64,000 nt of DNA from Candidatus Omnitrophota bacterium (GCA_041651115.1 JBAZJY010000002.1:158855-222854), one strand, 5' to 3'. Shown: positions 7,801-24,880, numbered from the stretch's first letter. Made by a program: numbers and translations. Notes: generated by a model not told the origin, from the letters alone.

Positions 7801-8079
7801 ATATTGCGCCAGCGCGGGCTATCAATGTTTGATGCGGTAACTGCCGGAGGCAGGGATAGGCTGCGTCCGGTTTTAATGACTACGATCACTACTCTTGCCG
7901 GCCTTTTACCTTTGGCGCTTTCGCGCGGCGAAGGCTCGGAGATCTGGCAGCCGCTGGGCATTACTATGATCGGCGGATTAAGCGTCTCTACTTTAATTAC
8001 TATGTTTTTTGTTCCCACGCTTTATGCGATATTCCATAAGAAGACGCAAATTGCGGCTGCAGGAGGGCCGGTAAAATGA
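4888..8079 (+). CDS. efflux RND transporter permease subunit (AcrB/HAE family)
   Basis: 1063 aa with 12 TM segments and two large periplasmic loops. Conserved RND segments such as GMVVDNAIVVVDNI and IVVNNAIVLI are present. Confidence 0.9.
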   Translation: MNLPEFGVKKPVTNLMIFLAIIILAAYSMTRIGIDMMPEIEPPAISVISTYPGASPEDVEIKVTEELENQLATTPGLEKLTSVSYEGASLITLKFLWGTNLDEASNDIRDRIELAKRFLPDIPDEMENPFIFKFNTANIPIIYLGITAKQSYAELYDMVDKKIGDVLRQLPGVGTVQIQGGGLERQINVWIDRQQLEGYGFPILDISNALKRENVTQPVGNLKTGLTDYLIRLPGEFANPDEINLVILGKRNGNLVYLKDVARIEDSFKEETTRVRINQEPGLMLMIQKQSGTNTVEVSGRVKEKLKELEKVMPSDVRLNLIFDTSKDIIDSVNSLKSSLWLAIIMVIVVVWFFLRQFAPSMIIALTIPFSLLISFIYLFLSGKTINTISLSSIAIATGMVVDNAIVVVDNIVRRFERGSRLQEAAIFGTSEMFLSIAASTMTTIVVFMPMLFIPGVVGIMFGELAIIVIVTLLASLFTAATFSPMLCSKWLRPSASGKNGKAKLFSQFYALSEKWFISLESFYSRCLGRALRHKKIVVFGFFAAFIFSLLLVPLVGNEFIPEEDSGDVRMTVFLPIGTRMEESDKVAQRIEGLFKSNVPEARFYYARSGQITGMGRVMGNASGTHIISAGVKLVPKQQRKRSVDDVAQMLRGKIKNIPGVLKTDIGTGNPLNRLITGAGGKTVQLEIIGHSFEETDVLAEKIKAILEKIPGAVDVSVSREANRPELKIEVDRQKAASLGLDMKTIADSLNMFIQGSSATKYREKGETYDIYVRLEESSRATLEDIDNLAVTAPLPEERSSFAGLENLASLKGVSRKAIKLSNIAKIYETAVPESIERKNRERVVRVECNAFKRSSGKIVEDLKRELDKIALPQDIQLAFGGTAEEQTKAFKDLTLLLLLGISLVYMVMAAQFESFLDPFIVMFAIPFTFIGVVLGFILTGTTLSVITFLGIVMLMGIVVNNAIVLISYISILRQRGLSMFDAVTAGGRDRLRPVLMTTITTLAGLLPLALSRGEGSEIWQPLGITMIGGLSVSTLITMFFVPTLYAIFHKKTQIAAAGGPVK

Positions 8080-8372
8080 GTTTAAAAATGGCAATGGTTG
8101 TTTATAATGAGGCCCTGGATATGGAAGTTATGGAGGCTATGGATTCCTGCGGGTTAAAAAATTATACAAAGGTAATGGGTGTTTTTGGCCGGGGAGAAGC
8201 TTCCGGCAGCCATTTAGGCAATGATATCTGGCCCGGAAGGAATAACATCCTGTATATTGCCTGCGAAGACGCGCAGGCCAGGAAGCTTATTGAGGCGATT
8301 AAGCAGCTGAGAAAAAAGATCGGCCATGAAGGCGCAAAGGCCTTTATTCTGCCGGTAGAAGAGATCACCTAG
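8076..8372 (+). CDS. PII-like (GlnB-like fold) small protein associated with the RND operon
   Basis: 98 aa with a beta-alpha-beta-beta-alpha-beta pattern (MVVYNEALDMEVMEAMD...GVFGRGEASG). It overlaps the RND stop. Confidence 0.4.
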   Translation: MSLKMAMVVYNEALDMEVMEAMDSCGLKNYTKVMGVFGRGEASGSHLGNDIWPGRNNILYIACEDAQARKLIEAIKQLRKKIGHEGAKAFILPVEEIT

Positions 8373-9651: not shown

Positions 9652-10071
9652 GTGAAAAAAGGTTTTACGCTCTTGGAATTGATCGTTGTTATTGTTATTC
9701 TCGGCATCCTGGCGACATTAGCCACTACACAATACACGAGGATGGTAGAGAAGTCACGCGGCGCAGAGGCAAGGATCATCATCGGTTCTATCCGTACAAA
9801 CCAGGCTGCGATCAGGCTGCAGAATGGATCTTGTACAAGCACAGCTGCGGACGTGGGCATCGCAGCCGGCTCAGACGCGCCATCGCCATGCACAATAACC
9901 CATTATTTTTCCTATAGCCTTGCCGGCGCATCGGGCAATTCATTTACTGCTGTGGCTACCAGGTGCACAGTTAATGGCAAGAACCCGAATGCCGCAACAG
10001 CCGGAACGATCAGCCTGGTTACTAATTTTGATACCGGTGCGGACAGCTGGACTTCGGCAAGCGCGTATTAA
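9652..10071 (+). CDS. type IV pilin / pseudopilin-like protein (prepilin N-terminal methylation domain)
   Basis: N-terminus MKKGFTLLELIVVIVILGILA is a class III signal peptide with the G/F cleavage motif and Glu at +5. The start codon is GTG with a strong RBS. Confidence 0.85.
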   Translation: MKKGFTLLELIVVIVILGILATLATTQYTRMVEKSRGAEARIIIGSIRTNQAAIRLQNGSCTSTAADVGIAAGSDAPSPCTITHYFSYSLAGASGNSFTAVATRCTVNGKNPNAATAGTISLVTNFDTGADSWTSASAY

Positions 10072-10404: not shown

Positions 10405-10432
10405 TTGACTTAAGGAATCGGATTCGTATAAT
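10405..10432 (+). promoter_or_regulatory. sigma70-like promoter (TTGACT-16nt-TATAAT) of the biosynthetic operon
   Basis: TTGACT lies at 10405-10410 and TATAAT at 10427-10432. It is the only sizeable intergenic gap before 11 kb of co-directional overlapping genes. Confidence 0.6.
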
Positions 10433-10470: not shown

Positions 10471-10734
10471 ATGAATTGGGAACCGGGTACAGAGGCAAGG
10501 TTCAAGGCAGTCATCTCTAAACTTCCGATCTTTCACCGCCGGATCGCCGAGAACGCTGTGGCCGTAAAGGCCGAAGAAAACGCCGGCGCAAGGAAAAGCC
10601 CGCAGGTTGAAGAGCAGGATGTGGTTGCCGCGTTCTTTTCAGACGTGCCTTCCCCGTTTTACAGTATGATGGTCCGCCTCCTGGAGCAGTCCGGTTTTGA
10701 TTATAAAAAATACGGTTACCCTAAGAACAAATGA
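10471..10734 (+). CDS. PCP-reductase-family small protein (protochlorophyllide reductase 57 kDa subunit C-terminal domain-like)
   Basis: 87 aa. The W..EA.ARFK....P.F.RR.AE..V...AE pattern matches standalone PF08369-type proteins. Confidence 0.45.
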   Translation: MNWEPGTEARFKAVISKLPIFHRRIAENAVAVKAEENAGARKSPQVEEQDVVAAFFSDVPSPFYSMMVRLLEQSGFDYKKYGYPKNK

Positions 10735-11735
10735 TGATTGCGGTGATTGGCAGCGGCGCCATAGGCGGCCTTGTTGCCGGGTATCTTAAAGAAAAAGGCC
10801 GGGACGTCCTATTGGTGGGTAACCCGGCTGCGGTAGAAGCGGTCAAGGTTAACGGCCTATCCATAAGCGGGGTAAGGGGCAATATTAAGGTAAAGATAGA
10901 TATTGCCAACCGTTTAGACCGGCAATACGGTCTGGTAGTGCTTGCGGTTAAGACGCAGGACGTTGAAAAAGCTGTAAAAGATAACCTCGCTTTTTTAAAG
11001 GACTCCGTAATCCTGACCGCGCAGAACGGTATTCAGGCGGATAATATTGTCAGCCGCTTTGTTGCCGAGGAAAAGATCGTTTCCAGTATTGTGATGTTCG
11101 GCTCAACCTGTATTGAGCCGGCAAAAATAGTGCATAATTTTGAAGGCGGCTGGATCATTGGCAAGGCCTTTGGCGCTGATGACAGCGTCGTAGATAAGGC
11201 GGCAGCGGCGCTTGGTGAAATATTCCCCGTAACCGTTGCTGCGGATATCCGGGGAATGAAATACCTGAAAGTATTTGTGAATGCCAATAACTGCATTCCG
11301 GCGATCCTGGGCATAAGCATGCAGGAAGCGTTTGCCGATATCCAAGTCAGCCGCATCAGCATTGCTATCTGGCGCGAAGGGTTTGATATTATCAGAAGGG
11401 CGGGGATAAAAATGGCTTCTTTGCCGGATTTTCCTCTGGAACGGCTGACCAGGCTTTTATCTTTACCCGCGCCTGAAGCGGCAAAGATTTTCTCCGGGAT
11501 CATGGCCAGCCTCAGTAAAGAGCCTTTATACGGGTCGATATTACAGAGCATAAAACGGGGAAAGTCTTCGGAAATAGATTATATCAACGGCGAATTCGTA
11601 AACATTAGCCGGCAGAATAACAGCCACGCTCCTTTAAATGAAAAATTAACGGAGATGGTGCATCGGGTGGAAAAAACCGGCAAATTCCTTTCTAAGCAGG
11701 AATTGCTTGAGGAAACGAAGGATTTAGTCGATTAA
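10731..11735 (+). CDS. 2-dehydropantoate 2-reductase family NAD(P)-dependent oxidoreductase (ApbA/PanE-like)
   Basis: N-terminal Rossmann IAVIGSGAIGGLVAGYL, 334 aa, KPR-family layout. Confidence 0.6.
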   Translation: MMIAVIGSGAIGGLVAGYLKEKGRDVLLVGNPAAVEAVKVNGLSISGVRGNIKVKIDIANRLDRQYGLVVLAVKTQDVEKAVKDNLAFLKDSVILTAQNGIQADNIVSRFVAEEKIVSSIVMFGSTCIEPAKIVHNFEGGWIIGKAFGADDSVVDKAAAALGEIFPVTVAADIRGMKYLKVFVNANNCIPAILGISMQEAFADIQVSRISIAIWREGFDIIRRAGIKMASLPDFPLERLTRLLSLPAPEAAKIFSGIMASLSKEPLYGSILQSIKRGKSSEIDYINGEFVNISRQNNSHAPLNEKLTEMVHRVEKTGKFLSKQELLEETKDLVD

Positions 11736-11736
11736 T

Positions 11737-12366
11737 ATGCAAGGCAAAAACGAAAATTATGACGCGGGCTCTGTAAATAGCCCGTTCCCAAAGCTAAAGC
11801 TTACCGTAACCAATGTTTTTGGGGAATGTTACCACGGGTATAAAGTAGGCGACGAGCTGGTTCTCGGCGATTTTACCCATCCGCCGAAACATTTTTGCCT
11901 GGGGCTGGCGCATGCCTTATTCCCGGTGATCTACGCGTTAAGTTTCGGGGCAAAGTTCGGCTTCCGCGATAACCAGCGTTCACTTTTAGTTACCTGCCCG
12001 GACGGCGGCAAGCTTGAATTCAAGGCTGAAGTTTTAGATAAGGACGGCAAGGTTGAATTCCTGCCTAAGGACCCCGGCCATAAAGGGCCGAACCCTAAAA
12101 AAATGATCATCGAGGCAGTCAAAGCAAAAGGTAAATGCGCATTTGGTTATAAAGTAGGAGATAAGTGGGAAACTACCGGGCTTAAATGCATTCCCGGGTT
12201 TTGCGGGGCTGCGTTTCATACCGCATTCCCCGCGTTATTTGCGCTTAATTTCGGGGCAAAGTTCTTTTTTATGCCCGATCCAAATTCCGTAGATACAGTT
12301 ACCTGCCCGGACGGCGGGAATATCGTGTTCAAAGTAAAAAGAGTGGAAGAAGAAGAGAAGGAATAG
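11737..12366 (+). CDS. tandem-duplicated TIGR04076-like Cys-containing protein
   Basis: Two internal repeats each carry C.HGYKVGD...G..C.G......FP...AL.FGAKF.F.......V.CPDGGN..FK. Each repeat resembles the ~90-aa TIGR04076 family. Confidence 0.5.
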   Translation: MQGKNENYDAGSVNSPFPKLKLTVTNVFGECYHGYKVGDELVLGDFTHPPKHFCLGLAHALFPVIYALSFGAKFGFRDNQRSLLVTCPDGGKLEFKAEVLDKDGKVEFLPKDPGHKGPNPKKMIIEAVKAKGKCAFGYKVGDKWETTGLKCIPGFCGAAFHTAFPALFALNFGAKFFFMPDPNSVDTVTCPDGGNIVFKVKRVEEEEKE

Positions 12367-12367
12367 T

Positions 12368-13630
12368 ATGAAAAAGAGAAGAGTGGTGATCACCGGTATC
12401 GGCACGGTTTCGCCTAATGGGATTGGTAAGGAGAATGCATGGAAGGCAATGTCTTCGGGAAAATCCGGGGTAAAGCTCGTGGATGGTTTTGACGTGTCAA
12501 TGTTCAACACGCAGATCGCTGCCGAGGTCAGGGATTTTGACCCGTTCAAATTAGGCCTGACGCATGAAGAAGCCGTGCGTATGGACAGGTATGTGCAATT
12601 TGGCGTAGTTGCCGGAGATATGGCAATAAAGGATTCCAGCCTTGATTTTTCCAAGGAAGACCCTGAGCGCGTAGGCGTTTGCCTTGCTAACGCCATCTGC
12701 GGCACGAAGTATATGGAAGAAGAGTTCGTTATGGTTACCGATAACGGTAAAAATCCCATTGACCCTTCGCGGGTGAGGCAGGACCTTTATGACGCGGCAA
12801 TGTTTAATACTCCTTCGATCGAACTGTCCGCGCGTTATAAATTAAAAGGCATCTGCAATACTTTATCCACCGGCTGTACTGCCGGCACGGATTCTTTAGG
12901 TTTTGCCCTGGAAACCATCCAGGATGGCGAACAGGATATCATGGTCGCGGGCGCAGCAGAGGCCCCGATCACCCCGATCACTTTCGGCGCGTTTGACGTG
13001 GTGAACGTCCTTTCCAGCCGCAATGCCGAGCCGGAAAAAGCGTCACGCCCGTTTGACAATAAGCGGGACGGCTTTGTGCTTTCGGAAGGCGCTGGTATTT
13101 TAATATTAGAAGAGCTTCAGCACGCGTTAAAACGTAACGCCCGCATATATTGCGAAGTGCTCGGCTTTGGCACGAGCTGCAATGCTTTCCATATGACTGA
13201 TCTGCCGGGTGATGGATCGGCAATGGCAAATTGCATAAGCATGGCGCTTAAGGACGCGGAAATGAAACCTCAGGAGATCGATTATATCAACGCGCACGGC
13301 TCATCTACGCGCATGAACGATATTTTTGAGACTTCTGCATATAAGATGATCTTTGGCGATTACGCCTATAAGCTGCCGATGAGCTCCTTTAAGTCAATGA
13401 TCGGCCATCCTTTGGCAGCGTCTAACGCAATTGAGCTGACGGTTTGCTCGATGATCTTCGAGAAAAATATCCTTCCTCCTACGATAAACCAGGAAGAAAA
13501 AGACCCCCTCTGCGACCTGGATTACATCCCGAATGTTGCCCGGGCAAAGAAGGTGAATACGATATTAAAGACAAGCAGCGGGTTTTCCGGAATTCATTCT
13601 TCGCTGATTATTAAACGTCTGGAGATATAA
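12368..13630 (+). CDS. beta-ketoacyl synthase, type II PKS KS-alpha-like
   Basis: 420 aa. Active-site LSTGCTAGTDSLG matches the KS-alpha signature, and His-His motifs are present (HMTD, NAHGSST). Confidence 0.8.
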   Translation: MKKRRVVITGIGTVSPNGIGKENAWKAMSSGKSGVKLVDGFDVSMFNTQIAAEVRDFDPFKLGLTHEEAVRMDRYVQFGVVAGDMAIKDSSLDFSKEDPERVGVCLANAICGTKYMEEEFVMVTDNGKNPIDPSRVRQDLYDAAMFNTPSIELSARYKLKGICNTLSTGCTAGTDSLGFALETIQDGEQDIMVAGAAEAPITPITFGAFDVVNVLSSRNAEPEKASRPFDNKRDGFVLSEGAGILILEELQHALKRNARIYCEVLGFGTSCNAFHMTDLPGDGSAMANCISMALKDAEMKPQEIDYINAHGSSTRMNDIFETSAYKMIFGDYAYKLPMSSFKSMIGHPLAASNAIELTVCSMIFEKNILPPTINQEEKDPLCDLDYIPNVARAKKVNTILKTSSGFSGIHSSLIIKRLEI

Positions 13631-14869
13631 ATGGCAAAGACAGCAATTACAGGGATCGGTATTGTCGCGCCCTCGGGTATAGGTAAGCGCCAGTTCTGGG
13701 CAAACGTTAAATCCGGACGTTCGTCCATAAAAGAGATCACCCGTTTTGACGCTTCAAAATATCCCGCGCATATTGCCGGCCAGATCGACGACTTAGAAAA
13801 ATATAGCCATGTTTCCGAGCGGCTTTTAAAAAAGATCGACGCATTTTCGCATATGGCCTTGATCGCATCCGAACTTGCGCTGCAGGATGCGGGTATTGAT
13901 ATCAAAAATGAAGACCCGAACCTCGTAGGTATATTTTTAGGCAATGCCATCGGCGGATGGCTCTATGCCGAAACCGAGCTGCGCGACCTGTATATTGAAG
14001 GCCGCGAGGGTGTGTCGCCTTATATGGCGTCGGCGTGGTTTCCCGCGGCGCCGCAAGGCCAGGTCTCCATTTATTACGGGATAAAAGGTTTCAGTAAAAC
14101 TGTAGTTGCCGACCGCGCCAGTTCTGCGATGGCCATCGGCTATGCCAATAAAACTTTAAGTAAGGATAAATTGAATATGATCCTTGCCGGCGGCATGGAA
14201 GCGCCGGTAACGCCTTACGCGCTGTTATGCTGCAATACTTACGGCGGGCTTTCTGTCGATAACGCGCATCCCGCGGCTGCTTACCGGCCGTTTGACAGGA
14301 AACGCAGCGGCTTTGTCATCGGCGAAGGCGCGGGGATCATGGTTATGGAGCCTATAGAGCGCGCAAAGGCGCGGAAGGCAAATATTTTAGCCTATACCTG
14401 CGGCTATGGTTACAGTTGTGACGCTATTGATCGGATTAATCCCGATGCTTCAGGTGTGCAATTGGCACGCGCGATAAAAATGGCGCTGAGTGACGCAAAA
14501 GTAAAAGCAGAAGAGATCGATTATATAAGCTTAGATGGACTGGCGGTAAAATCATGGGATGCAGGAGAGGTAGCGGCAATAAAGGAAGTTTTCGGGCCAA
14601 AGGCCAAAGGCATACCTGTAAGTTGCCCAAAATCAATGTTCGGTAATTTACTGGGCGCTTCCGGCGCAGTTGACCTGATCACCGCGGTTATGGCAATGGA
14701 AAACAGCCTGGTGCCTCCGACAATCAACCTTGACGACCCGGACTTGAACGGGCTAAACTATGTTACCGGGGAATCGCGCGAGTATAAAATAAATAAAGCC
14801 CTGATCATTTCCCGCGGCAGGGGCGGGATCAATTCAGCGTTGGTAATAGAAAAAGGAGGGTCAAAGTGA
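13631..14869 (+). CDS. ketosynthase-like chain-length-factor (KS-beta/CLF-like), catalytically inactive partner
   Basis: 412 aa KS fold. The active-site Cys is replaced (VADRASSAM aligns to STGCTAGTD), and the second His motif is lost (YISLDG instead of NAHG). Confidence 0.7.
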   Translation: MAKTAITGIGIVAPSGIGKRQFWANVKSGRSSIKEITRFDASKYPAHIAGQIDDLEKYSHVSERLLKKIDAFSHMALIASELALQDAGIDIKNEDPNLVGIFLGNAIGGWLYAETELRDLYIEGREGVSPYMASAWFPAAPQGQVSIYYGIKGFSKTVVADRASSAMAIGYANKTLSKDKLNMILAGGMEAPVTPYALLCCNTYGGLSVDNAHPAAAYRPFDRKRSGFVIGEGAGIMVMEPIERAKARKANILAYTCGYGYSCDAIDRINPDASGVQLARAIKMALSDAKVKAEEIDYISLDGLAVKSWDAGEVAAIKEVFGPKAKGIPVSCPKSMFGNLLGASGAVDLITAVMAMENSLVPPTINLDDPDLNGLNYVTGESREYKINKALIISRGRGGINSALVIEKGGSK

Positions 14870-16326
14870 AAATATTATTCGTAATGCCAAAAGTAGGGGC
14901 GTGGGCAACGCACGGCATTCATCGTTCGCCAAATCAACTTTATGCGCATTGGGCGGCATATGTGCGCGAAAGAGGCTATGAGGATGTGGCGGTTATAGAC
15001 GGCAAAGCCGATCAGATACCCATGGATCAACTGATTGAGCAGGTAAAAGAGAAGAATCCCGATGTCGTGGTCATGGGTGAACAGCTGCATGGTTATGGCG
15101 GATACGGAGTTTTGCGGCATTTTCACGATGCAGCCGTCGGCATTAAAAAAGCGCTTCCCAAAACAAAAATAGTTTTTGGCGGGTTATGGTATTCTGCCAT
15201 GCCTGTGCATACATTAGAAGGTATCCCTGAGGTAGACTTTGTAGTCATGGGCGAAGAAGAATCTTTCGGCGATCTGATCGAGGCAATCGATAAAAAGAAA
15301 GATTTTAAAGACGTGGGCGGAGTTACTTCGCGCATCGGCAGCGAGATTGTCATGGGGCCGCACAAGCCGCTCATGGAAGACCTGGATAAACTGCCGCTTC
15401 CGGCATATGACCTGTTCCCGATGGGTAAATACGTCGGGCACACCTATTGGAAGCCGTTCGTAGATATGGTTACTTCCCGCGGCTGCCCTTCTGCGTGTAC
15501 TTTTTGTTATGAGTGGGACCAGTTTGACCCGCGCAGCCCTTCGGATTTCCTGAAATGGCGCGCTAAATCACCGGAGCGGGTGATCGAAGAGATGGAGCTT
15601 TTACAGAATAAATACGGGGTCAAGGTAGTGGTGATCCAGGACGATAATTTTAACGTTGATCCTGCGCGCGTGAAAAGATTCTGCGAACTAAAGAAGCAGA
15701 AAAAGATAGATATTAAATGGGTTTCCCTGGGCCGCGCCATTGACTGGGTCAATTGCGAAAGCGTGCTTCCCCTGATGAAGGAGACCGGCTTGTTCATGGG
15801 CGTATTCGGCATTGAAGTTACTACGCAATCAGAGCTTAAAAAGATCGCCAAGGGCATAACTTTAGATCAGATCAAAAAAACCATCGAGATCCTGCGCAAG
15901 AACGACATCGCGATTGTCGCGGACATTATGATGGGTTTTGATTACGATACAGAAGAGATCATCAAACAGCGGTTTGAATTCACCGATCAGGTTGACCCGG
16001 ATATCCTTTGGGTCGGCTATGTCACGCCTGCGCCGAATTCCCCGATGTGGAAGATCGCCTTGAAGAAAAACTGGATTGACCCCAAAAAAGTTGATTTCAG
16101 CACCTGGGATTTCCTGCACCCGGTCATCCCTACCGATCATTTAAGTACTGAAGACCTGGGCAGGCTGGGTTCCTGGTGTATGCGTGAATTTTTCTCAAAG
16201 CCGGGCAGGATCAACCGGATCATGGAAAGCAATTTTGATATGCTTGCCAAGCTCTGTTTCAAGGATGTTATGGACGGGATTAACAAATGGGAAGCCGGAG
16301 CGACAAAAGGCGAGGTGCATATTTAA
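14866..16326 (+). CDS. B12-binding domain radical SAM protein (class B)
   Basis: N-terminal cobalamin-binding Rossmann-like domain. CPSACTFC cluster (CxxxCxxC) at residues ~200. 486 aa. Confidence 0.8.
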   Translation: MKILFVMPKVGAWATHGIHRSPNQLYAHWAAYVRERGYEDVAVIDGKADQIPMDQLIEQVKEKNPDVVVMGEQLHGYGGYGVLRHFHDAAVGIKKALPKTKIVFGGLWYSAMPVHTLEGIPEVDFVVMGEEESFGDLIEAIDKKKDFKDVGGVTSRIGSEIVMGPHKPLMEDLDKLPLPAYDLFPMGKYVGHTYWKPFVDMVTSRGCPSACTFCYEWDQFDPRSPSDFLKWRAKSPERVIEEMELLQNKYGVKVVVIQDDNFNVDPARVKRFCELKKQKKIDIKWVSLGRAIDWVNCESVLPLMKETGLFMGVFGIEVTTQSELKKIAKGITLDQIKKTIEILRKNDIAIVADIMMGFDYDTEEIIKQRFEFTDQVDPDILWVGYVTPAPNSPMWKIALKKNWIDPKKVDFSTWDFLHPVIPTDHLSTEDLGRLGSWCMREFFSKPGRINRIMESNFDMLAKLCFKDVMDGINKWEAGATKGEVHI

Positions 16327-16337
16327 CGGAGGCGGAT

Positions 16338-16577
16338 ATGGAAGTAAAAGAAAAGATTAAAGATGTGTTCGTGGATCTTTTAAAGGTCAAGCGCGCAGAA
16401 TTAAAAGACGATATCAACCTGCAGAGTTCGATCGGCGTGGATTCCACGGAAATGGTAGAGAGCGTGATCGCCCTGGAAAAGGCCTTCGGCGTGAAATTAA
16501 GCCCGAAAGAGATCACCAAATTTTCCACGCTTAACGACATTGAAAAGAATATCCAGTCCAAGCTGGCAGGTAAATAA
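16338..16577 (+). CDS. acyl carrier protein
   Basis: 79 aa from ATG at 16338, which follows a GGAGG RBS. It has the phosphopantetheine-attachment motif GVDSTEMVE. Confidence 0.75.
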   Translation: MEVKEKIKDVFVDLLKVKRAELKDDINLQSSIGVDSTEMVESVIALEKAFGVKLSPKEITKFSTLNDIEKNIQSKLAGK

Positions 16578-16578
16578 A

Positions 16579-17379
16579 ATGACGATAATCGACTTAAGCC
16601 TACCCATTGACGAACGCGCCCCGGAAGTGCACCCCTTCGGCATTGAACGGCTTGGCCATAAAGAAGGCGTGCGCCATTTAAACTGGGTGATGATGAAGAA
16701 AACCCTTTTGGGCCGGGTATCTTTTTTCCTGGGCAAGCGGCTGATCAAACCGCAGGAGCTTCCCGACGAGGAATTCCTTTCTTTGGAGACCGTGCATTGC
16801 CCGGTGCATATCGGCACGCATATTGACTATACATACCATTACGGCACGAAATGCGAAGGCCGCGCATCTAAGAGCATCAGCGAACTGCCCTTAAAATGGT
16901 GTTTTTCCGACGGCGTTGTCTTGAATTTCACTTTCCGCCAGCCCGGAGAGGTGATCTCGCGGCTGGACGTGGAAGAGGCGCTTAAGAAAATAAATTACAG
17001 CGTAAAGCCCAACGACATCGTGCTTTTCCATACGGCAGCGGACCGGTTTTTCGGCACGCTTGATTACCTGAATAATTACCCGGGAGTTTCTCCGGATGCC
17101 ATAGAATTCCTGCTGAATATGGGGGTGAAGATCATCGGTATAGACACCCTTGGGTTTGACCGGCCGTATAAATTCATGATGCGCGATTTTATGCGCACGA
17201 AAAACCCGGCATTCCTCTGGCCGGCGCATTTTTTCGGCAGGAAGCGGGAATACGCGCATATTGAGCGTCTTACTAATTTGGACAAGCTGCCGCCGTTTGG
17301 TTTCAAGATACAGTGTTTCCCGATCAAGATCCTTGATTGCGGCGCTGCCTGGGCAAGAGTAGTAGCAATATTAGATTAG
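16579..17379 (+). CDS. putative cyclase family protein (PF04199, kynurenine formamidase-like)
   Basis: The HCPVHIGTHIDYTYH metal-binding motif is typical of this family. Start is taken at ATG 16579, just after the ACP stop. Confidence 0.65.
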   Translation: MTIIDLSLPIDERAPEVHPFGIERLGHKEGVRHLNWVMMKKTLLGRVSFFLGKRLIKPQELPDEEFLSLETVHCPVHIGTHIDYTYHYGTKCEGRASKSISELPLKWCFSDGVVLNFTFRQPGEVISRLDVEEALKKINYSVKPNDIVLFHTAADRFFGTLDYLNNYPGVSPDAIEFLLNMGVKIIGIDTLGFDRPYKFMMRDFMRTKNPAFLWPAHFFGRKREYAHIERLTNLDKLPPFGFKIQCFPIKILDCGAAWARVVAILD

Positions 17380-17391
17380 AGAGGTGGAAAT

Positions 17392-17838
17392 ATGGGCCAT
17401 ACGTGTAATTCCATTATCATCAACGCGCCTTACGATTTGATTTTTGATATTTCCAACGACATCCCGCGCTGGACAGAATTGTTCGGCACAGAGTACCAGA
17501 AAGCCGAGATTGTAAAAAAAGAAGGCAATAAGATCACCTTCCGGCTTACCGATGACGAAGGAAAATCATGGCAGTCATGGCGGCTCTTGTTCAAGGACAA
17601 TTACCTTGCGTATGCGGAAAGAGAAGAGCCGAAATTCCCCTTTAAATATATGAAGATCATTTGGCTCTATACACCTAAGCCCGGGGGAATTGAGTTGACC
17701 TGGATTCAGCATTTTGAAATGGATGAAAAGGCCAAATTCAACGACGAGCAGGTGGAAGGCTTTATCAATAAGCACTCCAAGGACAATCTTAAGATATTTA
17801 AAGAAGTTATTGAAAAAGAAGCCAAGACAAATAAGTGA
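17392..17838 (+). CDS. SRPBCC / polyketide cyclase-dehydrase (Polyketide_cyc2-like) protein
   Basis: 148 aa, START/Bet v1-like composition resembling TcmN-type ARO/CYC domains. Confidence 0.5.
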   Translation: MGHTCNSIIINAPYDLIFDISNDIPRWTELFGTEYQKAEIVKKEGNKITFRLTDDEGKSWQSWRLLFKDNYLAYAEREEPKFPFKYMKIIWLYTPKPGGIELTWIQHFEMDEKAKFNDEQVEGFINKHSKDNLKIFKEVIEKEAKTNK

Positions 17839-18959
17839 AAAGGTCCTTATTCATTATCTTCTGTCTTGAAGGCGCGATCCTCTCTTTTAACGTCGCTGCC
17901 TGTTCAGCTTTGATCCCCTCAATCTCCCAGGAATTTTCTGTTTCACAATTTATCGCCGGCAGGGCAGTGTGGCTGTATATGCTGCCTTACGGGATCGCCG
18001 CGCTTTTATACGGTCCGCTGGTGCGGCGCTTTGACGCGCGCAGGATAGAATTAACCTGTTTTTTATTTTTTTCTTTGGCAAACCTGTTTGCCGCGCTTTC
18101 CCCGGACATCAACAGGTTTTTCACCGCCAGGCTTTTAATGGGCATATTCGGCGCTTCGGTGATCCCGCTGGTGTTGATACTGATCGCCCGCCACGGCGCG
18201 GCAAAGACAAGGGGCAGGCAGATAGGCGTATTTTTCAGCGCTACTTTTGTTGCCTCGCTTGCCGGTTTATTCTTAAGCGGGCTGATTAATTGGCGGATGA
18301 TCTTTCTTATTCCCGGCCTGGCAGGCATTGCGCTTTGGGTATACATGTATTTTAACCTGCCAAGTTTCCAGAAAGACTGCGGCGGTTTTAAAATAAATTA
18401 CCTGGCTGCTTTTAAAAGCAGGGCAGTGGTTTCCATATTTACCTATATATTCCTTATCAGCCTGCTTTATCACGGCGTTCAGCAGTGGCTGGGAGTATTT
18501 TTCTCCGTGAAATTCGGTTTAAGCCAGTTTTTAGTCAGCATGCTGGTAACGCTTACCAGCCTAAGCGGCATATTCGGCGAGGTGATCGGCGGCTGGCTTG
18601 CGGATACGCTCGGCAGGATAAGGACCATTGATTTGGGCATAATGATCATGATAGTGTCTTTAATATTACTGCTTTTTAAAATACCGCTTGTGATGATTGC
18701 CGTAGCGATGATTGCCTGGGGCCTGGGCTGGACATTTAATCATGCGGGTTTGTCTACGCTGCTTACCGACCTGCCGTCTGAATTCCTTAACGAGGCAGCG
18801 AGTTTGAACAGCAGCGTGCGTTTTGTTTCCGGCGGTGTAGGCGCGGCAGCAGGCGGCATGATCATGCAAAAAAGTTTTTCAACCGGTTTCATCATCGCGG
18901 CCGTAGCTTTAACCGCACTGGCCGTTTCAGCGAAAAAACTATTAAACCAAGGGGGATAA
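17835..18959 (+). CDS. MFS transporter
   Basis: 374 aa, ~12 TM helices with MFS loop motifs. Confidence 0.7.
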   Translation: MKRSLFIIFCLEGAILSFNVAACSALIPSISQEFSVSQFIAGRAVWLYMLPYGIAALLYGPLVRRFDARRIELTCFLFFSLANLFAALSPDINRFFTARLLMGIFGASVIPLVLILIARHGAAKTRGRQIGVFFSATFVASLAGLFLSGLINWRMIFLIPGLAGIALWVYMYFNLPSFQKDCGGFKINYLAAFKSRAVVSIFTYIFLISLLYHGVQQWLGVFFSVKFGLSQFLVSMLVTLTSLSGIFGEVIGGWLADTLGRIRTIDLGIMIMIVSLILLLFKIPLVMIAVAMIAWGLGWTFNHAGLSTLLTDLPSEFLNEAASLNSSVRFVSGGVGAAAGGMIMQKSFSTGFIIAAVALTALAVSAKKLLNQGG

Positions 18960-18960
18960 C

Positions 18961-19734
18961 ATGTCAGAACTAAAAGGAAAGACAGCGATCGTTACCGGCG
19001 CAAGCCGGGGCATTGGTAAGGCGCTTGCCTGTACAGCAGCAAGCCTGGGGATCAATTTAGCAATTGCCGCCCGGCAGGAAGGCCCGTTAAAAGAGACGGC
19101 GGATGAAATCGCCAAAAAATATAACGTTCAGGTCTTGCCGGTAGCCTGCGATGTTACCAAGCTTGAAGACCTTGAGAATCTGGTGAATAAGGCAAAGGAA
19201 AAATTCGGGAAAATAGATATCCTGATCAATAACGCCGGCGTTTCCAGCCAATACCCGTTCCATGAACAGCCGATAGAAGACTTTGAGAAACTGGCGCATA
19301 CCAATTACCTGGGCTATGTGCGCTTGATTCGCCTGGTGATCAATGATATGATTAAAAATAAATCCGGGGCGATCATTAACATGGTTTCCGGGTCAACGCT
19401 TTGTGACCCTTTACCGAGGAATTTTATCGTCTATAGTTCTTTAAAAGTCGGCTTGCGCGCATTTTCCAAGGCTTTATTTTGGGAGTTGCGCGACTACGGC
19501 ATAAAAGTGACTTCTCTTTTACCCGGGGTCACCGATACGGACCTGACCGGAAAGCTTAAAGAGATTACCAATGAAAATTCCCGGTTAATGTCTACCGAGG
19601 CAATTGAAAATGCAGTGAAATTCGCGCTTACTGTCCCGGCAAATGTCTGTCCATTGGAAATTGCCGTGATCAACCAGCAGACGCCGTGGACTGCGCCGGT
19701 TATACCATACAAGCAGGCACACCCGGGAAAATAA
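18961..19734 (+). CDS. SDR family oxidoreductase (ketoreductase)
   Basis: TGASRGIGKA Rossmann motif, NNAG, and the YSSLK catalytic Tyr-Lys pair. Confidence 0.85.
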   Translation: MSELKGKTAIVTGASRGIGKALACTAASLGINLAIAARQEGPLKETADEIAKKYNVQVLPVACDVTKLEDLENLVNKAKEKFGKIDILINNAGVSSQYPFHEQPIEDFEKLAHTNYLGYVRLIRLVINDMIKNKSGAIINMVSGSTLCDPLPRNFIVYSSLKVGLRAFSKALFWELRDYGIKVTSLLPGVTDTDLTGKLKEITNENSRLMSTEAIENAVKFALTVPANVCPLEIAVINQQTPWTAPVIPYKQAHPGK

Positions 19735-19775
19735 CTTCGTCTGGTGCATCATCTTTGTTGAAAAAGGAGGAGAAT

Positions 19776-20381
19776 GTGAAGAAAATATTATTAGCAGCGA
19801 TGTTTTTACTGATTTCGGCTTCTCTGTCTTTCGCGCAAGGGGATAATCTTCTCATTGATGATTTTGAAGGTGCGATTTCCGGCGGGCCTGAAGGCACGGT
19901 TGATTTTGGGGCGGGCAACGGCTCCGCGGTCCAGGTTTTGGCAGCTACGGATATTAAACATTCCGGCAGCCATTCGCTTAAAGTTGATTATGATGCCCTG
20001 GCCGGAGGGTATATTTATGTGGCAAAGGGCAGCGGCCTTGATGCAAAAAATGCCGGATGGCTGGTTAAGCCGGAAGACATTGACTGGAAGGCTTACAAGG
20101 CAATAATTTTTTATATGTACGGCAGTGATTCCAAGGTTGATGTGGCATTTGACATCAAGGACAGCGGCGGGGAGCTGTGGCGTTTTATTGTCAAAGATGA
20201 TTTTACCGGTTGGAAACCGATCCTTTGCCCGTTTGCGGAGTTTTTTGCCCGCAGCGATTGGCAGCCGGAAAGCGCGGATAAAAACGGGAATATAGATTTC
20301 CCTCTTAAGCACTACCAATTTGAGCCGTTGCCCGAAGCAAAGGGCGTGCTTTATTTTGACGAAGTTGAGCTGGTAAAATAG
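19776..20381 (+). CDS. secreted beta-sandwich protein (CIA30/CBM-like), hypothetical
   Basis: GTG start after AAGGAGG. Signal peptide KKILLAAMFLLISASLSFAQG, then a DDFEG...W.......G galactose-binding-like pattern. Confidence 0.4.
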   Translation: MKKILLAAMFLLISASLSFAQGDNLLIDDFEGAISGGPEGTVDFGAGNGSAVQVLAATDIKHSGSHSLKVDYDALAGGYIYVAKGSGLDAKNAGWLVKPEDIDWKAYKAIIFYMYGSDSKVDVAFDIKDSGGELWRFIVKDDFTGWKPILCPFAEFFARSDWQPESADKNGNIDFPLKHYQFEPLPEAKGVLYFDEVELVK

Positions 20382-20405
20382 GATAACCTTAATGGAGGGC
20401 AGGAA

Positions 20406-20822
20406 ATGACTAAGCAGGATATCAAGAATTTGAAGAAACGCTACCTTGTCTGGCTGTATATGACCACCAAAGAGGCATTTGACCGCTACGAAAGAAAATT
20501 CACCCAGCTGGACATTGATACATTCATGCTTTTTGAGATGGAGAAAGAGCTTAAAGGCGCATACCTGCCCGGAGACAAAAAGACGTTGGAAAAATACATT
20601 AATGATTTTCGCGAATATATTGCCGAGAAAGAAAAAGTCTGCCTGAAGTTAAAGTATAAAGATAAAAGGATCGACCCGGAATTCCTTTTTCTTGATATAA
20701 AACTGGATGCGCTTGAAAAAGCGATCGTCAAAGAATTAGGCACAAAGGCCCTGGATGAGATAAAGGCGTTTTACGAATCTGAAATGACCGAGAAGATCTC
20801 GCGGGGGACAAAGCATAAATGA
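20406..20822 (+). CDS. hypothetical protein
   Basis: 138 aa charged helical ORF, co-directional and overlapping the next gene. No recognisable motif. Confidence 0.35.
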   Translation: MTKQDIKNLKKRYLVWLYMTTKEAFDRYERKFTQLDIDTFMLFEMEKELKGAYLPGDKKTLEKYINDFREYIAEKEKVCLKLKYKDKRIDPEFLFLDIKLDALEKAIVKELGTKALDEIKAFYESEMTEKISRGTKHK

Positions 20823-21730
20823 TCATTGACGCGCACAGCCACTGGCTTCCCGAAGAAATAATCAGCAATGCCCATTTTTATTCCAAGGCATGGGGCCAGA
20901 TCAGCTCGCAGATAGAGATCATGGCAGCTGCGGGCATTGATAAGGCGGTCTTAAGCTATCCGACTTCCGACGCGCACTTAAAATTAGGCGGGTCACTTGA
21001 GGTGGCGCAGATCTATAACGACAACGTGGCGGATATCATCAAGCAGGCGCCGGATCAATTCATCGGGGCAGCAATCCTGCCCGTGGAAGATAAAATGAAA
21101 ATGCTCGCGGAATTCAGGCGGGCAACCGAAGATCTCGGGTTTAAGGCATTGTCACTGGCATCAAGCTATGACGGCGCATATCTTGACGATAAGCGCTTTT
21201 TCCCGCTTTATGAAAAAGCAGCGCAAAAGAACCTGCCGGTCTTCGTGCATTCCCAGATCGTTAATCCTATCGGCTTTGAGCGCGTGCAGGATCCGCTGCT
21301 GACGCCGGTGATTGAGTATGTCTTTGATACGACGATCTGCATCGGCAAATTATTAATGAGCGGGGTGCTTGCGGAATTTAACAGCGTAAAATTCATTTTT
21401 GCGCATTTTGGCGGGGTAATCCCGCATCTTGCTTACCGTTTTGACGCGACTTACCAGATGCTGCGTTCAATAAATTTCGTCAAAGACTTAAAAGGCAATC
21501 CTACGCAATTCTTAAAGAATATTTATGTGGATACCAGCGGAGACGTGCGCCAGGCTAATTTCCTTGCCGCGCTTGAGCTGGTGGGCCCGGACCATATTTT
21601 GTGGGGCAGCGATTGGCCGGCAAAAAAAGACCCGGCTGCTTCGATCAAAGCAGTACAGGACTTAGACATATCCGCTGCCGATAAAACAGCAATCCTCGGC
21701 AACAATTTAGCAAAGCTGTTCGCTCTTTAA
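20819..21730 (+). CDS. amidohydrolase-2 family protein (PF04909, decarboxylase/hydrolase type)
   Basis: N-terminal IIDAHSHWLPEEI and C-terminal ILWGSDWP metal-ligand motifs of the ACMSD-type amidohydrolase family. Confidence 0.75.
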   Translation: MIIDAHSHWLPEEIISNAHFYSKAWGQISSQIEIMAAAGIDKAVLSYPTSDAHLKLGGSLEVAQIYNDNVADIIKQAPDQFIGAAILPVEDKMKMLAEFRRATEDLGFKALSLASSYDGAYLDDKRFFPLYEKAAQKNLPVFVHSQIVNPIGFERVQDPLLTPVIEYVFDTTICIGKLLMSGVLAEFNSVKFIFAHFGGVIPHLAYRFDATYQMLRSINFVKDLKGNPTQFLKNIYVDTSGDVRQANFLAALELVGPDHILWGSDWPAKKDPAASIKAVQDLDISAADKTAILGNNLAKLFAL

Positions 21731-22190
21731 TATACGCACGGTTAATTCATGCCTTTTTATTCTCGGCGCTGCAAACATTTTGCCGTCGGCTACGGTTTAC
21801 TCGTCGCTCTCAGGCATACTTTCGTAACATTAGGGCTTCCGCTCCTCGTAAAGCCTTGCCGACTGGCCTGTAAACGAATTGGCAAAAATTTGCAATGCGC
21901 CTGCGAACAAAAAGCATGAATTTATTAATGTGTATCCATAAGCATCCAAGATAAGTATAAATCATAGCAGCGGCTGGCTTGGCTTTGCTTTGAGCAGCAC
22001 GTAGGAGGCTTGAGCGGGCACGGTTGCCCTCATATACGTTAGGGCAGAGCGAAAGCCGACTCACGAGCGAAGATTTTCCTCGCAGGGGAAAATCAAGCGG
22101 TGCTGCGAAAAGCAAGACAAGGCAGACGCTACAAGATTGATTAGATAAGGAAATATAAGTTTGTTAAACTAACCAACAAGGAGTATAACG

Positions 22191-22940
22191 ATGCAAATGG
22201 TTAAGGATGTGCATTTGACGGGTAAGGATTTGACGCAGATGGTGCAGCTCAGACCGCAGGACGTGGGCAAATACGCGATCGTGCCCGGGCCAAAGGACCG
22301 GCTGGAAGTTTTATTAAAAAAGATGGAGAATCCGGTAAAGAATTTCTCATTCATGGAATACACCATGTACACCGGTATGTATCAAGGCATCAAGCTCACC
22401 GGTATAAACGGCGGCAGGTTCTCCACCGACACTTCCATCACTTCGGAAGTAATGTGCAATGCCGGTATACAGAATATCATCCGTATCGGCACCTGCGGTT
22501 CTTTGGATGAAAATATTAAAGTCGGGGACATTGTTGTGGTAGATAAAGTGATCCGCGGCGACGGAGTAACCCCGTATTATGTGGATAAGGATTTTCAGAC
22601 CGTAGCCGACAAAAAGATCACCGATACTTTATTTGAAGTTGCTAAAGGTATGGGTGTCAACGTGCATCGCGGATGCGCCTGGACAACCGACGCGCTGCTG
22701 CGCGAAACAAGGGAGATCGTAGAGGCAAAGCGCAAAGAAGGTGCGATTGCCGTGGATATGGTTTCCTCAACGCTCCTGACCATTGCCCAAACATATAATG
22801 TCAAAGCCGGATCGATCCTGGCGGTAAGCGACAACGTGATCACCGGCGAGATGGGTTTTATGAACCCGCTTTATTATATGGCAGAATCAAGCTTGATCAG
22901 CATTGCTTTGGAAACCGTAAAGAAGCTGGAAGGAAAATAA
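22191..22940 (+). CDS. PNP/UDP phosphorylase family nucleoside phosphorylase (MTA/5'-deoxyadenosine phosphorylase candidate)
   Basis: 249 aa. GTCGSL phosphate-binding segment and PNP_UDP_1 fold pattern. AAGGAG RBS. Confidence 0.65.
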   Translation: MQMVKDVHLTGKDLTQMVQLRPQDVGKYAIVPGPKDRLEVLLKKMENPVKNFSFMEYTMYTGMYQGIKLTGINGGRFSTDTSITSEVMCNAGIQNIIRIGTCGSLDENIKVGDIVVVDKVIRGDGVTPYYVDKDFQTVADKKITDTLFEVAKGMGVNVHRGCAWTTDALLRETREIVEAKRKEGAIAVDMVSSTLLTIAQTYNVKAGSILAVSDNVITGEMGFMNPLYYMAESSLISIALETVKKLEGK

Positions 22941-23881
22941 TGAAATTTTCTCCGCTTTTCTGGCCGATTGAATACAAGAATAGCGCTGTTTATATCCTTG
23001 ATGAGACGCTGCTGCCGCATAAAGTGCGCTATATAAAGGCAGGCAACTATATCCAGGCCTGCAAGGCGATTAAAGAAATGAAAACGCGCGCTGTGGGCCA
23101 GGTGATCTTGGTGTTCTATACTTTTCTGATGGTATTAAACCAGAATAAGGGCAAAAAAGATATTCTGCCGATATTAAAAAAAGTTAGCGAAGAAATTAAC
23201 GCCACGCGGCCCACGCTTTCCTTTAAATATCTCACGGATATGGTACTTGGTTGGGCTGCTCAAGGAGCGCCGTTAGAAAAAAGTATCCCGGGATTTTTGG
23301 AAACTTTAAAGAACAGCCGGATCAAACAGGCAGAACAAGCGGCAAAGCTCTTGAACGATAAAGACGTGGTCCTGACGCATTGCAATGTCAGCGGCCTCCT
23401 GCCTTTGATCGCGGAATTCTGCCGTAAAGAAAACAAAACGATCAGTTTTTTTGCCACGGAAACCCGGCCTTATTTACAGGGTTCGCGCCTGACTGCATGG
23501 GAATTAAGCGAAGCAGGCATTGACGTGACTATCATTGCCGATAATATGGTGGCCCAGGTCATGCAGGAAGGAAAGATCAATAAGGTGATCGTCGGCGCAG
23601 ACCACTTGGCGCAGAACGGCGACATTGCCAATAAGATCGGCACGTACCAGATCGCGATCATTGCCAGGCGTTTTAATGTGCCGTTCTATGTCTTATGCCC
23701 GCCGGCATCAAGGCTGGCAACGGGAAAAGAGATCAAGATCGAGATCCGGCCGGACAAAGAGTTATTGGAATATCAGGGTATTCAGCTTGCGCCAAAAGGG
23801 GCAAAAGGGTATTATCCGGCATTTGACGTCACACCCGCGGAATTGATCACTAAACACATTTACTTGGAGATTCCCCGATGA
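22940..23881 (+). CDS. mtnA: S-methyl-5-thioribose-1-phosphate isomerase family (eIF-2B alpha/beta/delta-like, MtnA-like)
   Basis: 313 aa with the e2B-family layout. The N-terminus ...AVYILDETLLPHKVRYIKAG..AC.AIKEM.TRAVGQ is typical of MtnA. Confidence 0.65.
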   Translation: MKFSPLFWPIEYKNSAVYILDETLLPHKVRYIKAGNYIQACKAIKEMKTRAVGQVILVFYTFLMVLNQNKGKKDILPILKKVSEEINATRPTLSFKYLTDMVLGWAAQGAPLEKSIPGFLETLKNSRIKQAEQAAKLLNDKDVVLTHCNVSGLLPLIAEFCRKENKTISFFATETRPYLQGSRLTAWELSEAGIDVTIIADNMVAQVMQEGKINKVIVGADHLAQNGDIANKIGTYQIAIIARRFNVPFYVLCPPASRLATGKEIKIEIRPDKELLEYQGIQLAPKGAKGYYPAFDVTPAELITKHIYLEIPR

Positions 23882-24879: not shown

Positions 24880-24880
24880 A

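Follow-up and report, generated by a model that had tools for sequence, protein, structure and literature searches.

Inspection of a 64,000-nucleotide stretch of Candidatus Omnitrophota bacterium DNA (GCA_041651115.1, JBAZJY010000002.1:158855-222854; the whole of it hereafter the window) reveals a class B radical S-adenosylmethionine (SAM) enzyme, encoded at 14866-16326 on the + strand, whose pairing with a type II polyketide synthase (PKS) operon is without precedent and conserved very widely. The operon spans approximately 10471-27883 (~17 kb, + strand) and is a co-inherited unit across the uncultivated phylum Omnitrophota. We tentatively regard the enzyme as a tailoring component, fixed and under strong constraint, of a conserved pathway that is anaerobic and type II PKS-like. 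Our account of its chemistry is likewise tentative: a cobalamin-assisted C-H functionalization of a tethered intermediate, in which methylation would be the likeliest outcome and a co-encoded nucleoside module would clear the 5'-deoxyadenosine that is released.

Domain architecture and gene boundaries

The open reading frame (ORF) at 14866-16326 is unbroken, encodes 486 amino acids (aa) and is a real gene. Pfam places a B12-binding domain (PF02310) at residues 30-133 (E 7.7e-11, 42.3 bits against a gathering score of 32.1) and a Radical_SAM domain (PF04055) at residues 201-371 (E 1.3e-21), and no further domain was found in the protein at E<=0.01. The SRGCPSACTFC motif supplies C207-x3-C211-x2-C214. 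These three are the sole invariant cysteines of the family in three alignments (A1, A2 and A4). With no further cysteine conserved, nothing points to an auxiliary Fe-S cluster, and that candidate was rejected. An AlphaFold (AF2) model built from 50 sequences (predicted local distance difference test score, pLDDT, 92.6) completes a three-part architecture of B12-binding domain, CX3CX2C radical SAM core and helical C-terminal domain. A preliminary description of the window had proposed a class B radical SAM enzyme with a B12 domain and a CPSACTFC cluster, and both domain matches and the three cysteines bear it out. From sequence and model together we infer a cobalamin-type class B enzyme that is predicted to bind and use cobalamin.

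The gene starts at GTG 14866, with an AGGAGG (14853-14858) 7 nt before it, and overlaps the stop of the preceding gene at 13631-14869 by 4 nt (GTGA), the TGA of that gene being shared. It ends at TAA 16324-16326, after which come a GGAGG at 16328-16332 and an ATG at 16338, 11 nt past the stop. A longest-ORF call starts the next gene, that of an acyl carrier protein (ACP), at ATG 16287, where the PP-binding match opens only at residue 22. In homologous loci the ACP is called at 77-82 aa, with its start past the stop of the radical SAM gene, and across 73 loci the end of that gene and the ACP alignment are 0 to 214 nt apart. The true start is most likely ATG 16338, which makes an artefact of the longest-ORF call the probable source of the overlap. 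Of the two overlaps originally described, the upstream one therefore stands and the downstream one probably does not; the radical SAM gene and its neighbors are tightly packed and probably co-translated, with overlap at the upstream junction only.

A type II polyketide synthase operon

The genes on either side of the radical SAM gene encode the core of a PKS. An active ketosynthase (KS-alpha; 12368-13630, + strand; PF00109/PF02801) retains the Cys-His-His triad, and its nearest solved relatives are the actinorhodin KS (1tqy_A, 382 bits) and Photorhabdus AntD (6smo_B, 374 bits), followed by FabF (~349 bits). The adjoining gene (13631-14869, + strand) encodes a catalytically dead KS partner that resembles a chain length factor (CLF). 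In pairwise alignment with the KS (35% identity), Arg stands at the KS Cys and Asp and Asn at the two His. The nearest solved relatives of this subunit are FabF (284 bits) and the actinorhodin CLF (1tqy_B, 265 bits). The Gln of the CLF active site that serves decarboxylative priming is absent, with Arg in its place. That is to say, the CLF label given earlier is sound in so far as it denotes a dead KS partner, but has to be qualified by the Arg found where actinobacterial CLFs carry the priming Gln. The discrete ACP (16338-16577, + strand; 79 aa from the revised start; PF00550) carries a GVDST serine motif. The minimal set of a type II PKS, namely a Cys-His-His KS, a homologous subunit lacking the Cys and a discrete ACP, is thus present.

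Two predicted cyclase partners follow. One is a PF04199 'putative cyclase' with a metal-dependent cyclase/hydrolase fold and an HxGTHxD motif (16579-17379, + strand; E 1.9e-29, 103 bits by sequence match), whose ATG 16579 lies immediately past the ACP stop. The other is an SRPBCC polyketide cyclase/dehydrase-like protein (17392-17838, + strand; PF10604, 29.9 bits against 27.4, and PF03364; median identity 83%). On sequence grounds the label 'type II PKS' is justified because the active KS is closer to the actinorhodin KS and AntD than to FabF, and the earlier placement of the enzyme inside a genuine operon of this type, resting on the same 382-bit match, holds.

The preliminary description knew of no such enzyme in characterized type II systems, and a literature search agrees: no class B radical SAM enzyme was found in a characterized aromatic type II PKS, the only related cases being coelulatin and an anammox ladderane cluster. 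The aromatic type II PKS cluster of coelulatin includes a radical SAM tailoring enzyme, but this is a class C, HemN-like methylase (PMC9714029), whereas the enzyme described here belongs to class B. A HemN-like, non-methylating identity had been named beforehand as grounds for abandoning the original proposal. No HemN was seen among 24 NCBIfam matches and no HemN_C was found by Pfam, and a class C identity of this kind was rejected.

Conservation across Omnitrophota

Homologues of the radical SAM enzyme form more than 120 clusters at 72-92% identity, nearly all of exactly 486 aa and chiefly from Omnitrophota. Contigs representing one genome per species hold 569 relatives, of which the best 80 show 73-93% identity, are nearly all from Omnitrophota and include one complete 1.27-Mb Omnitrophota chromosome (L084). 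The window proteins were mapped on 89 loci by tblastn; presence was counted in 53 loci with enough upstream DNA and in 43 loci with at least 9.5 kb downstream, and median identities were taken over 80 species-level genomes. Within the clade of the enzyme itself, KS, CLF-like, ACP and cyclase genes always lie alongside (53 of 53 loci with enough upstream DNA). Upstream, the KS, the CLF-like subunit and a TIGR04076-domain protein are each present in 53/53 loci, an ApbA-family reductase in 52/53 and a DUF2621-like protein in 51/53. Downstream, an Amidohydro_2 protein is present in 43/43 loci, a short-chain dehydrogenase/reductase (SDR) and an isomerase each in 42/43, an aldolase-SCP2 fusion in 40/43 and a phosphorylase in 37/43.

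The radical SAM enzyme has the highest median identity of the set (88%), followed by the SDR (87%), the phosphorylase and the TIGR04076 protein (84% each) and the KS (82%). In the most distant Omnitrophota genomes it is still 74% identical, against 48% for the housekeeping protein RlmN. A Thermodesulfobacteriota genome (L001) carries the operon at 77% identity of the enzyme, in a locus without the dehydrogenase and ligase genes, and this occurrence suggests lateral transfer.

Inspection of the related loci shows that gene order around the radical SAM gene varies. The gene lies between the CLF-like and ACP genes in type A loci only. In type B loci (L006, L084-L086, L088 and L089) it follows the SDR gene, in Ca. 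Velamenicoccus archaeovorus (L101, CP019384) it follows the Amidohydro_2 gene, and in L007 and L093 it stands ahead of the first gene. Because gene order is not conserved, the position of the gene tells nothing about when the enzyme acts, and the earlier argument from position to action during chain assembly is not supported.

The radical SAM gene itself is the constant element. Clusters of three kinds contain diverged full-length members of the family (37-51% identity; over 70 invariant positions); the contexts of distant homologues come from single contigs, and the labels Planctomycetales, Methanosarcinales and Methanoperedenaceae of metagenome-assembled genomes (MAGs) may be wrong. The first kind, seen in most Omnitrophota and in locus L001 of Thermodesulfobacteriota, combines PKS genes with the nucleoside module. 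The second has PKS genes with the nucleoside module absent within 10 kb (Ca. V. archaeovorus CP019384 and L093). The third joins the nucleoside module to DUF1329, FadD-like ligases and an MMPL transporter (L008/L009, and L099/L100, labelled Methanoperedenaceae), with DUF1302 in L099 only and no PKS genes in the sequence covered. Since the diverged relatives retain either the PKS genes or the nucleoside module, the radical SAM enzyme is the hub, the element common to all three kinds.

Locus L093 (GCA_040753015.1, JBFMHM010000007.1) is a variant in several respects. It encodes two paralogous B12-binding radical SAM enzymes, 56% and 38% identical to that of the window; the SDR and major facilitator superfamily (MFS) genes are absent, extra unknown genes are present, and a xanthine-dehydrogenase-type molybdoenzyme and molybdenum cofactor biosynthesis genes adjoin.

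A co-inherited nucleoside module

The downstream part of the operon holds a co-inherited 5'-deoxynucleoside module that was missed in the preliminary description and that opens further readings of the enzyme. A phosphorylase, an MtnA-like isomerase and an aldolase of class II are encoded by adjacent genes (PF01048, PF01008 and PF00596), each present in 37-42 of the 43 loci. The phosphorylase (22191-22940, + strand) is a nucleoside phosphorylase of the PNP_UDP_1 family, of the hexameric, uridine phosphorylase/DeoD-like type, and uridine phosphorylase leads its NCBIfam matches with 123 bits (cut-off 280). The isomerase (22940-23881, + strand) is an MtnA-like sugar-1-phosphate isomerase of the IF-2B family, scoring 257 bits against 271 with PRK05720, 240 against 279 with another MtnA model and 208 against 186 with TIGR00524. 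The aldolase (23878-24879, + strand) is fused to a C-terminal SCP2 lipid-binding domain (PF02036) and reaches 116 bits against a cut-off of 203, with just 34 bits for DrdA (6btd). The matches listed in a homologue search with the fusion protein were all relatives at 71% identity or above. In the diverged clusters the fusion is retained in homologues down to 36-40% identity.

Two further genes complete the module. An NAD(P)-dependent aldehyde dehydrogenase (24881-26353, + strand; PF00171, E 9e-171) also follows the aldolase in L004, L006, L008, L099 and L100. An AMP-forming acyl ligase (26369-27883, + strand; PF00501) is FadD/MenE-like and not Acs-like, with 428 bits for the long-chain model PRK06187 and 259 bits against a cut-off of 729 for acetate-CoA ligase; a FadD-like ligase is linked in L006, L008, L009 and L099.

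The same series of enzymes is known from published pathways. Phosphorylase, isomerase and class II aldolase make up the 5-deoxyribose/dihydroxyacetone phosphate (DHAP) shunt, which disposes of 5'-deoxyadenosine (PMC6079011), and the same trio with an aldehyde dehydrogenase leads from 5'-fluoro-5'-deoxyadenosine to fluoroacetate (PMC3999930). The operon differs from these pathways in its uridine phosphorylase/DeoD-type rather than MTAP-like phosphorylase, in the fusion of its aldolase to SCP2, in its PKS and radical SAM setting, in the FadD-like ligase that comes next and in having no halogenase.

A 460-nt non-coding gap (21731-22190) divides the operon between the Amidohydro_2 and phosphorylase genes and matched no Rfam family. 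This junction measures from 11 to ~2100 nt in related loci, and L004 carries CrcB and DUF190 genes there.

Placement among radical SAM families

Scores in this section and the next are NCBIfam bits over the curated cut-off, and the enzyme reaches no curated family cut-off. The top family is BchE (TIGR02026, 206/481, E 1e-60) and the second HpnJ (TIGR03471, 157/578), followed by ApyD (121/750), the P-methylases (~105/575-600), BzaD (95/450) and AprD4 (NF033070, 77/500). BchE orthology was rejected on its score together with the lack of tetrapyrrole genes in the operon, and neither its score nor its surroundings, where no shc or hpn genes lie nearby, identify the enzyme as HpnJ. The model places it outside the AprD4 family, though AprD4 is its nearest relative in the PDB. 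HpnH/MqnE membership found no backing either, as MqnE (6xi9) ranks 44th in the fold comparison with a template modelling (TM) score of 0.32 and the HpnH model is absent among the matches.

Among solved structures compared by sequence, AprD4 comes first (6fd2; E 3e-15; 93 bits by profile; 19% identity). OxsB is second by profile at 85 bits, its N-terminal domain included, and TokK, MgmA, CysS and TsrM follow. The profile aligns across the N-terminal domains of OxsB and TokK, both crystallized with cobalamin bound, whereas the alignment with AprD4 is restricted to residues 165-435 and leaves the N-terminal domain outside. A Foldseek search with the model returned AprD4 (TM 0.72/0.77), then MgmA, TsrM, OxsB, TokK and CysS, so that four B12-dependent methylases (MgmA, TsrM, TokK and CysS) are among the fold neighbors. 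AprD4 has the same architecture and, according to the literature, does not use cobalamin. As judged from these alignments and models, the class B architecture is sure, and neither sequence nor fold separates a methylase from a non-methylase.

Proposed mechanism

Every function assigned here is read from sequence, structural fold and genomic context. We propose, tentatively, that the enzyme functionalizes an unactivated C-H bond with the help of cobalamin. The [4Fe-4S] cluster held by the CX3CX2C motif would cleave SAM to give a 5'-deoxyadenosyl radical, which would take a hydrogen from an unactivated carbon of a polyketide or acyl intermediate, probably tethered as a thioester to pantetheine or the ACP. 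Cobalamin would help to resolve the resulting substrate radical, with C-methylation from methylcobalamin as the single most probable outcome because characterized class B enzymes are mostly methylases. The freed 5'-deoxyadenosine would then be cleared by the phosphorylase, the MtnA-like isomerase and the class II aldolase in the manner of the DHAP shunt. A carrier-tethered substrate has precedent because CysS and TokK were crystallized with pantetheinylated substrates (PDB titles). CysS and TokK/ThnK share the three-part architecture and fold class of the enzyme (Foldseek E ~1e-20, TM 0.63-0.69) and modify unactivated carbons in natural-product pathways on pantetheine-tethered substrates. They differ in being only ~15-18% identical to it and ~640-680 aa long as opposed to 486 aa, and neither belongs to a type II PKS.

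Several observations weigh against this account. Every curated methylase model scores far under its cut-off: TsrM (TIGR04428) 24/500, KedN5 (NF033712) 68/700, the C-methyltransferase of ribosomally made, post-translationally modified peptides (RiPPs; TIGR03975) 80/282, HpnR (TIGR04367) 99/650, PhpK (TIGR04479) 104/600 and TIGR04014 61/360. The non-methylating families BchE and HpnJ outscore them all, and the nearest relatives by sequence and fold are AprD4, reportedly a non-cobalamin enzyme, and the ring-contracting OxsB. The earlier suggestion of a methylase is accordingly not upheld as such. Cobalamin biosynthesis is not universal in Omnitrophota (PMC10066038). The variable gene order, the loci that pair the enzyme with the nucleoside module, MMPL and DUF1329 and show no PKS genes in the sequence covered (L008/L009 and L099/L100), the SCP2 fusion of the aldolase and the FadD/MenE-like, apparently not acetate-activating, ligase count on the same side, the last three appearing ill suited to plain salvage. 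A further poor fit to plain salvage is found in type B operons, where genes of the nucleoside module are interleaved with PKS tailoring genes through overlapping starts and stops.

Alternative explanations

In one alternative reading, unlikely but by no means negligible, the ribose of SAM is a building block and the enzyme makes a 5'-substituted 5'-deoxyadenosine on a hydrophobic intermediate, in the simplest form by adding the 5'-deoxyadenosyl radical to an olefinic or aromatic carbon in the fashion of HpnH and MqnE. The phosphorylase would drop adenine, the isomerase would yield a ribulose-1-phosphate and the SCP2-aldolase would release DHAP and an aldehyde two carbons longer, which the dehydrogenase would oxidize and the FadD-like ligase re-activate as an acyl thioester, either to start chains on KS/CLF or to become an envelope lipid that is exported. 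The fluoroacetate route uses exactly this series of enzymes (PMC3999930, PMC6079011), and in clusters with no PKS genes in the sequence covered (L008/L009, L099/L100) the radical SAM hub keeps phosphorylase, isomerase, aldolase-SCP2, dehydrogenase, ligase and MMPL/DUF1329; the interleaving with tailoring genes in type B operons points the same way. The SCP2 fusion and long-chain-type ligase favor a hydrophobic 5'-substituent, and the Arg in place of Gln in the CLF-like subunit makes an externally loaded starter plausible; hub pattern, SCP2 fusion, ligase type and missing priming glutamine are all best accounted for by this reading. An adenosylated lipid is known to lose its base to a purine nucleoside phosphorylase-family enzyme in the HpnH/HpnG system of adenosylhopane synthesis, where a radical SAM enzyme stands beside a PNP_UDP_1-family enzyme, as in the operon, and SAM ribose carbons enter the product (PMC13459092); an MMPL-type lipid exporter in loci related to the operon is shared with that logic. 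SAM ribose carbons can also enter the product in the futalosine pathway of MqnE and MqnB. Both systems differ in their radical SAM family, and an isomerase and aldolase after the phosphorylase occur in neither. The chemistry required is not known for class B enzymes, and we know of no case of substrate adenosylation by a B12-domain radical SAM enzyme. MqnE is only the remote fold match noted above, with no HpnH match seen, Ca. Velamenicoccus archaeovorus and L093 have no nucleoside module within 10 kb, the Thermodesulfobacteriota locus has neither dehydrogenase nor ligase, and plain salvage of 5'-deoxyadenosine accounts for the trio with no new chemistry. Another reading, likewise unlikely, is a BchE-like, O2-independent oxidation or cyclization, in which the spending of several SAM per product would account for the disposal genes encoded alongside. 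Here successive hydrogen abstractions by 5'-deoxyadenosyl radicals, with cobalamin or water as oxygen relay, would turn a benzylic or activated methylene of an aromatic polyketide into a hydroxyl or ketone (e.g. a quinone) or close a ring, taking over what O2-dependent oxygenases do in aerobic type II PKS pathways. The hosts are anaerobic (PMC10066038), and no oxygenase was seen among the operon proteins in Pfam/NCBIfam annotation. BchE, the anaerobic Mg-protoporphyrin monomethyl ester cyclase, and HpnJ, a radical SAM enzyme of the hopanoid cyclitol ether, are the two top-scoring families; both are non-methylating class B enzymes of anaerobic or lipid contexts, and the molybdoenzyme of L093 adds another water-dependent hydroxylase type. 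A 33%-identity homologue of the enzyme lies among Peptidase_U32 proteins, whose C-terminal domain is homologous to the product of the first gene of the operon, and Peptidase_U32 is the family of the O2-independent hydroxylases UbiU/UbiV. Yet the BchE and HpnJ scores are less than half their cut-offs, the BchE model also draws class B enzymes of other kinds (the L094 homologue reaches 279 bits), the neighborhood holds no tetrapyrrole or hopanoid genes and no oxidizable product position can be named. BchE-type enzymes carry a C-terminal DUF4070 domain, and neither this nor any other extra C-terminal Pfam domain was detected at E<=0.01.

It is quite improbable that the enzyme catalyzes a cobalamin-independent rearrangement or elimination of the AprD4/OxsB type, in which the N-terminal Rossmann domain would be structural, a vicinal diol would be dehydrated or a ring contracted on a polyketide or a sugar/nucleoside, and the SDR or ApbA reductase would complete the reaction as AprD3 does. 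AprD4 and OxsB do head the solved relatives; AprD4, a 1,2-diol dehydratase, shares the C-terminal 'TPxPxS...W...WID...H.V..TD.LS..DL' region and has an NADPH reductase as its partner, the operon conserves two NAD(P)H reductases, and the subfamily labelled Methanoperedenaceae gives only a 'weak' B12-binding signal. AprD4 is, by contrast, an aminoglycoside enzyme whose family model gives only 77/500 and whose N-terminal domain is unaligned by sequence, the alignment spanning residues 165-435 only, while the window enzyme has an N-terminal domain that scores above the Pfam cut-off for B12 binding and can be aligned with the OxsB and TokK cobalamin domains. The gene content also recalls anammox Cluster I (kuste3603-3608), where a KS/dead-KS heterodimer, a dedicated ACP and a B12-binding radical SAM enzyme occur together (bioRxiv 10.64898/2026.05.19.726425), and 'ladderane' calls of biosynthetic gene clusters (BGCs) have been made in Omnitrophota and Desulfobacterota MAGs (PMC9902471). 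A ladderane-type lipid pathway, in which the enzyme would be the orthologue of the Cluster I enzyme and build cyclobutane rings on an ACP-bound chain, is nonetheless most improbable. Orthology was rejected on family score and gene context: the Cluster I enzyme belongs to another radical SAM family (ladderane model TIGR04072, 75/360), no FabZ or phytoene-dehydrogenase (PDH) homologue occurs in the operon, and Cluster I is not described with the aromatic-PKS-type cyclases, the decarboxylase-like protein and the nucleoside module of the operon. The KS scores 382 bits with the actinorhodin KS, as opposed to 285 and 216 with the heterodimeric 3-oxoacyl-ACP synthase pair 9s5h, which we provisionally take to be the anammox KS pair. 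Ladderanes are known from anammox bacteria only (PMC9902471).

Other genes of the operon and the window

The first gene of the operon (10471-10734, + strand) encodes an 87-aa DUF2621-like protein (weak PF11084) that is 37% identical (E 7e-16) to the Peptidase_U32 C-terminal domain, and U32 genes flank the 33%-identity radical SAM homologue. The shared domain may be an adaptor for anaerobic tailoring enzymes. The cluster around that homologue (L094, 11438-12889) also contains many UbiE-like methyltransferase genes and HemW-like and SPASM radical SAM genes. Upstream of the first gene lies a promoter-like TTGACT-16-TATAAT at 10405-10432 (11/12 matches); it was the one notable site in a promoter and terminator scan whose counts were not above shuffled controls, such sites not being enriched over shuffles. 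An Rfam scan of the whole window returned two tRNAs only and no SAM or cobalamin riboswitch.

An ApbA/PanE-family NAD(P)H reductase comes second (10731-11735, + strand; PF02558, PF08546; TIGR00745, 152 bits), followed by a protein with the TIGR04076 domain in tandem (11737-12366, + strand; 95 bits, two stretches). Three invariant Cys and a His recur in each of its repeats (C31/C54/C87 and C134/C156/C190), which, with its median identity of 84%, suggests a metal or Fe-S site; a single-sequence model of its fold was unusable (pLDDT 39.6).

Past the cyclases lie an MFS transporter (17835-18959, + strand; PF07690), found in 45 loci and so not in every locus, and the SDR, a FabG/KR-like ketoreductase (18961-19734, + strand; PF00106, PF08659). 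A secreted CBM_11-domain protein is encoded at 19686-20381, between the SDR gene and that of a conserved 138-aa protein; it is found in ~30 Omnitrophota loci and is missing from the Thermodesulfobacteriota and type B versions. The 138-aa protein (20406-20822, + strand) occurs in 48 loci and has no Pfam or NCBIfam match. The Amidohydro_2 family protein (20819-21730, + strand; PF04909, E 1.8e-32) is of the decarboxylase/lactonase type.

Upstream of the operon, 2429-8372 encodes an outer-membrane factor, an HlyD-type adaptor, an AcrB-type resistance-nodulation-division (RND) pump and a P-II-like protein of small size. In at least 10 further Omnitrophota loci, synteny with the operon extends to the RND and P-II-like genes, suggesting that export is linked to it. 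The alpha subunit of the acetyl-CoA carboxylase carboxyltransferase (malonyl-CoA supply) is encoded at 415-1362, and a type IV pilin-like gene lies at 9652-10071, just upstream of the operon. Further downstream, 33708-41202 contains five consecutive radical SAM genes, which encode a 798-aa enzyme, a 499-aa B12-binding enzyme (36013-37512) and three radical SAM-SPASM proteins. This block, followed by glycosyltransferase and PMT_2 genes, is unrelated to the enzyme at 14866-16326 and looks like another tailoring or maturation cluster.

Implications

KS-CLF pairs of Candidatus Omnitrophica were catalogued in 2023 within an unexplored non-actinobacterial clade (PMC10132072), and the 'ladderane' BGC calls made in MAGs of Omnitrophota and Desulfobacterota were described as lacking an explanation (PMC9902471). 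Our literature search found no paper on the operon, its nucleoside module or its product. Clusters of this kind may lie behind some of the 'ladderane' calls in anoxic metagenomes, and the operon would be the first to tie a class B radical SAM enzyme to an aromatic-type KS/CLF system.

The nucleoside module may represent the first 5'-deoxyadenosine disposal dedicated to a single radical SAM enzyme, or a new use of the ribose of SAM. Should the ribose be incorporated, the fluoroacetate, futalosine and adenosylhopane pathways would have in it a counterpart from the lipid world, one that is conserved throughout Omnitrophota and that Thermodesulfobacteriota and other anaerobes share. Because the operon is kept even in a 1.27-Mb genome (L084), and because its radical SAM enzyme is more conserved than a ribosomal RNA methyltransferase, its product is probably central to the biology of these ubiquitous, uncultivated anaerobic nanobacteria.

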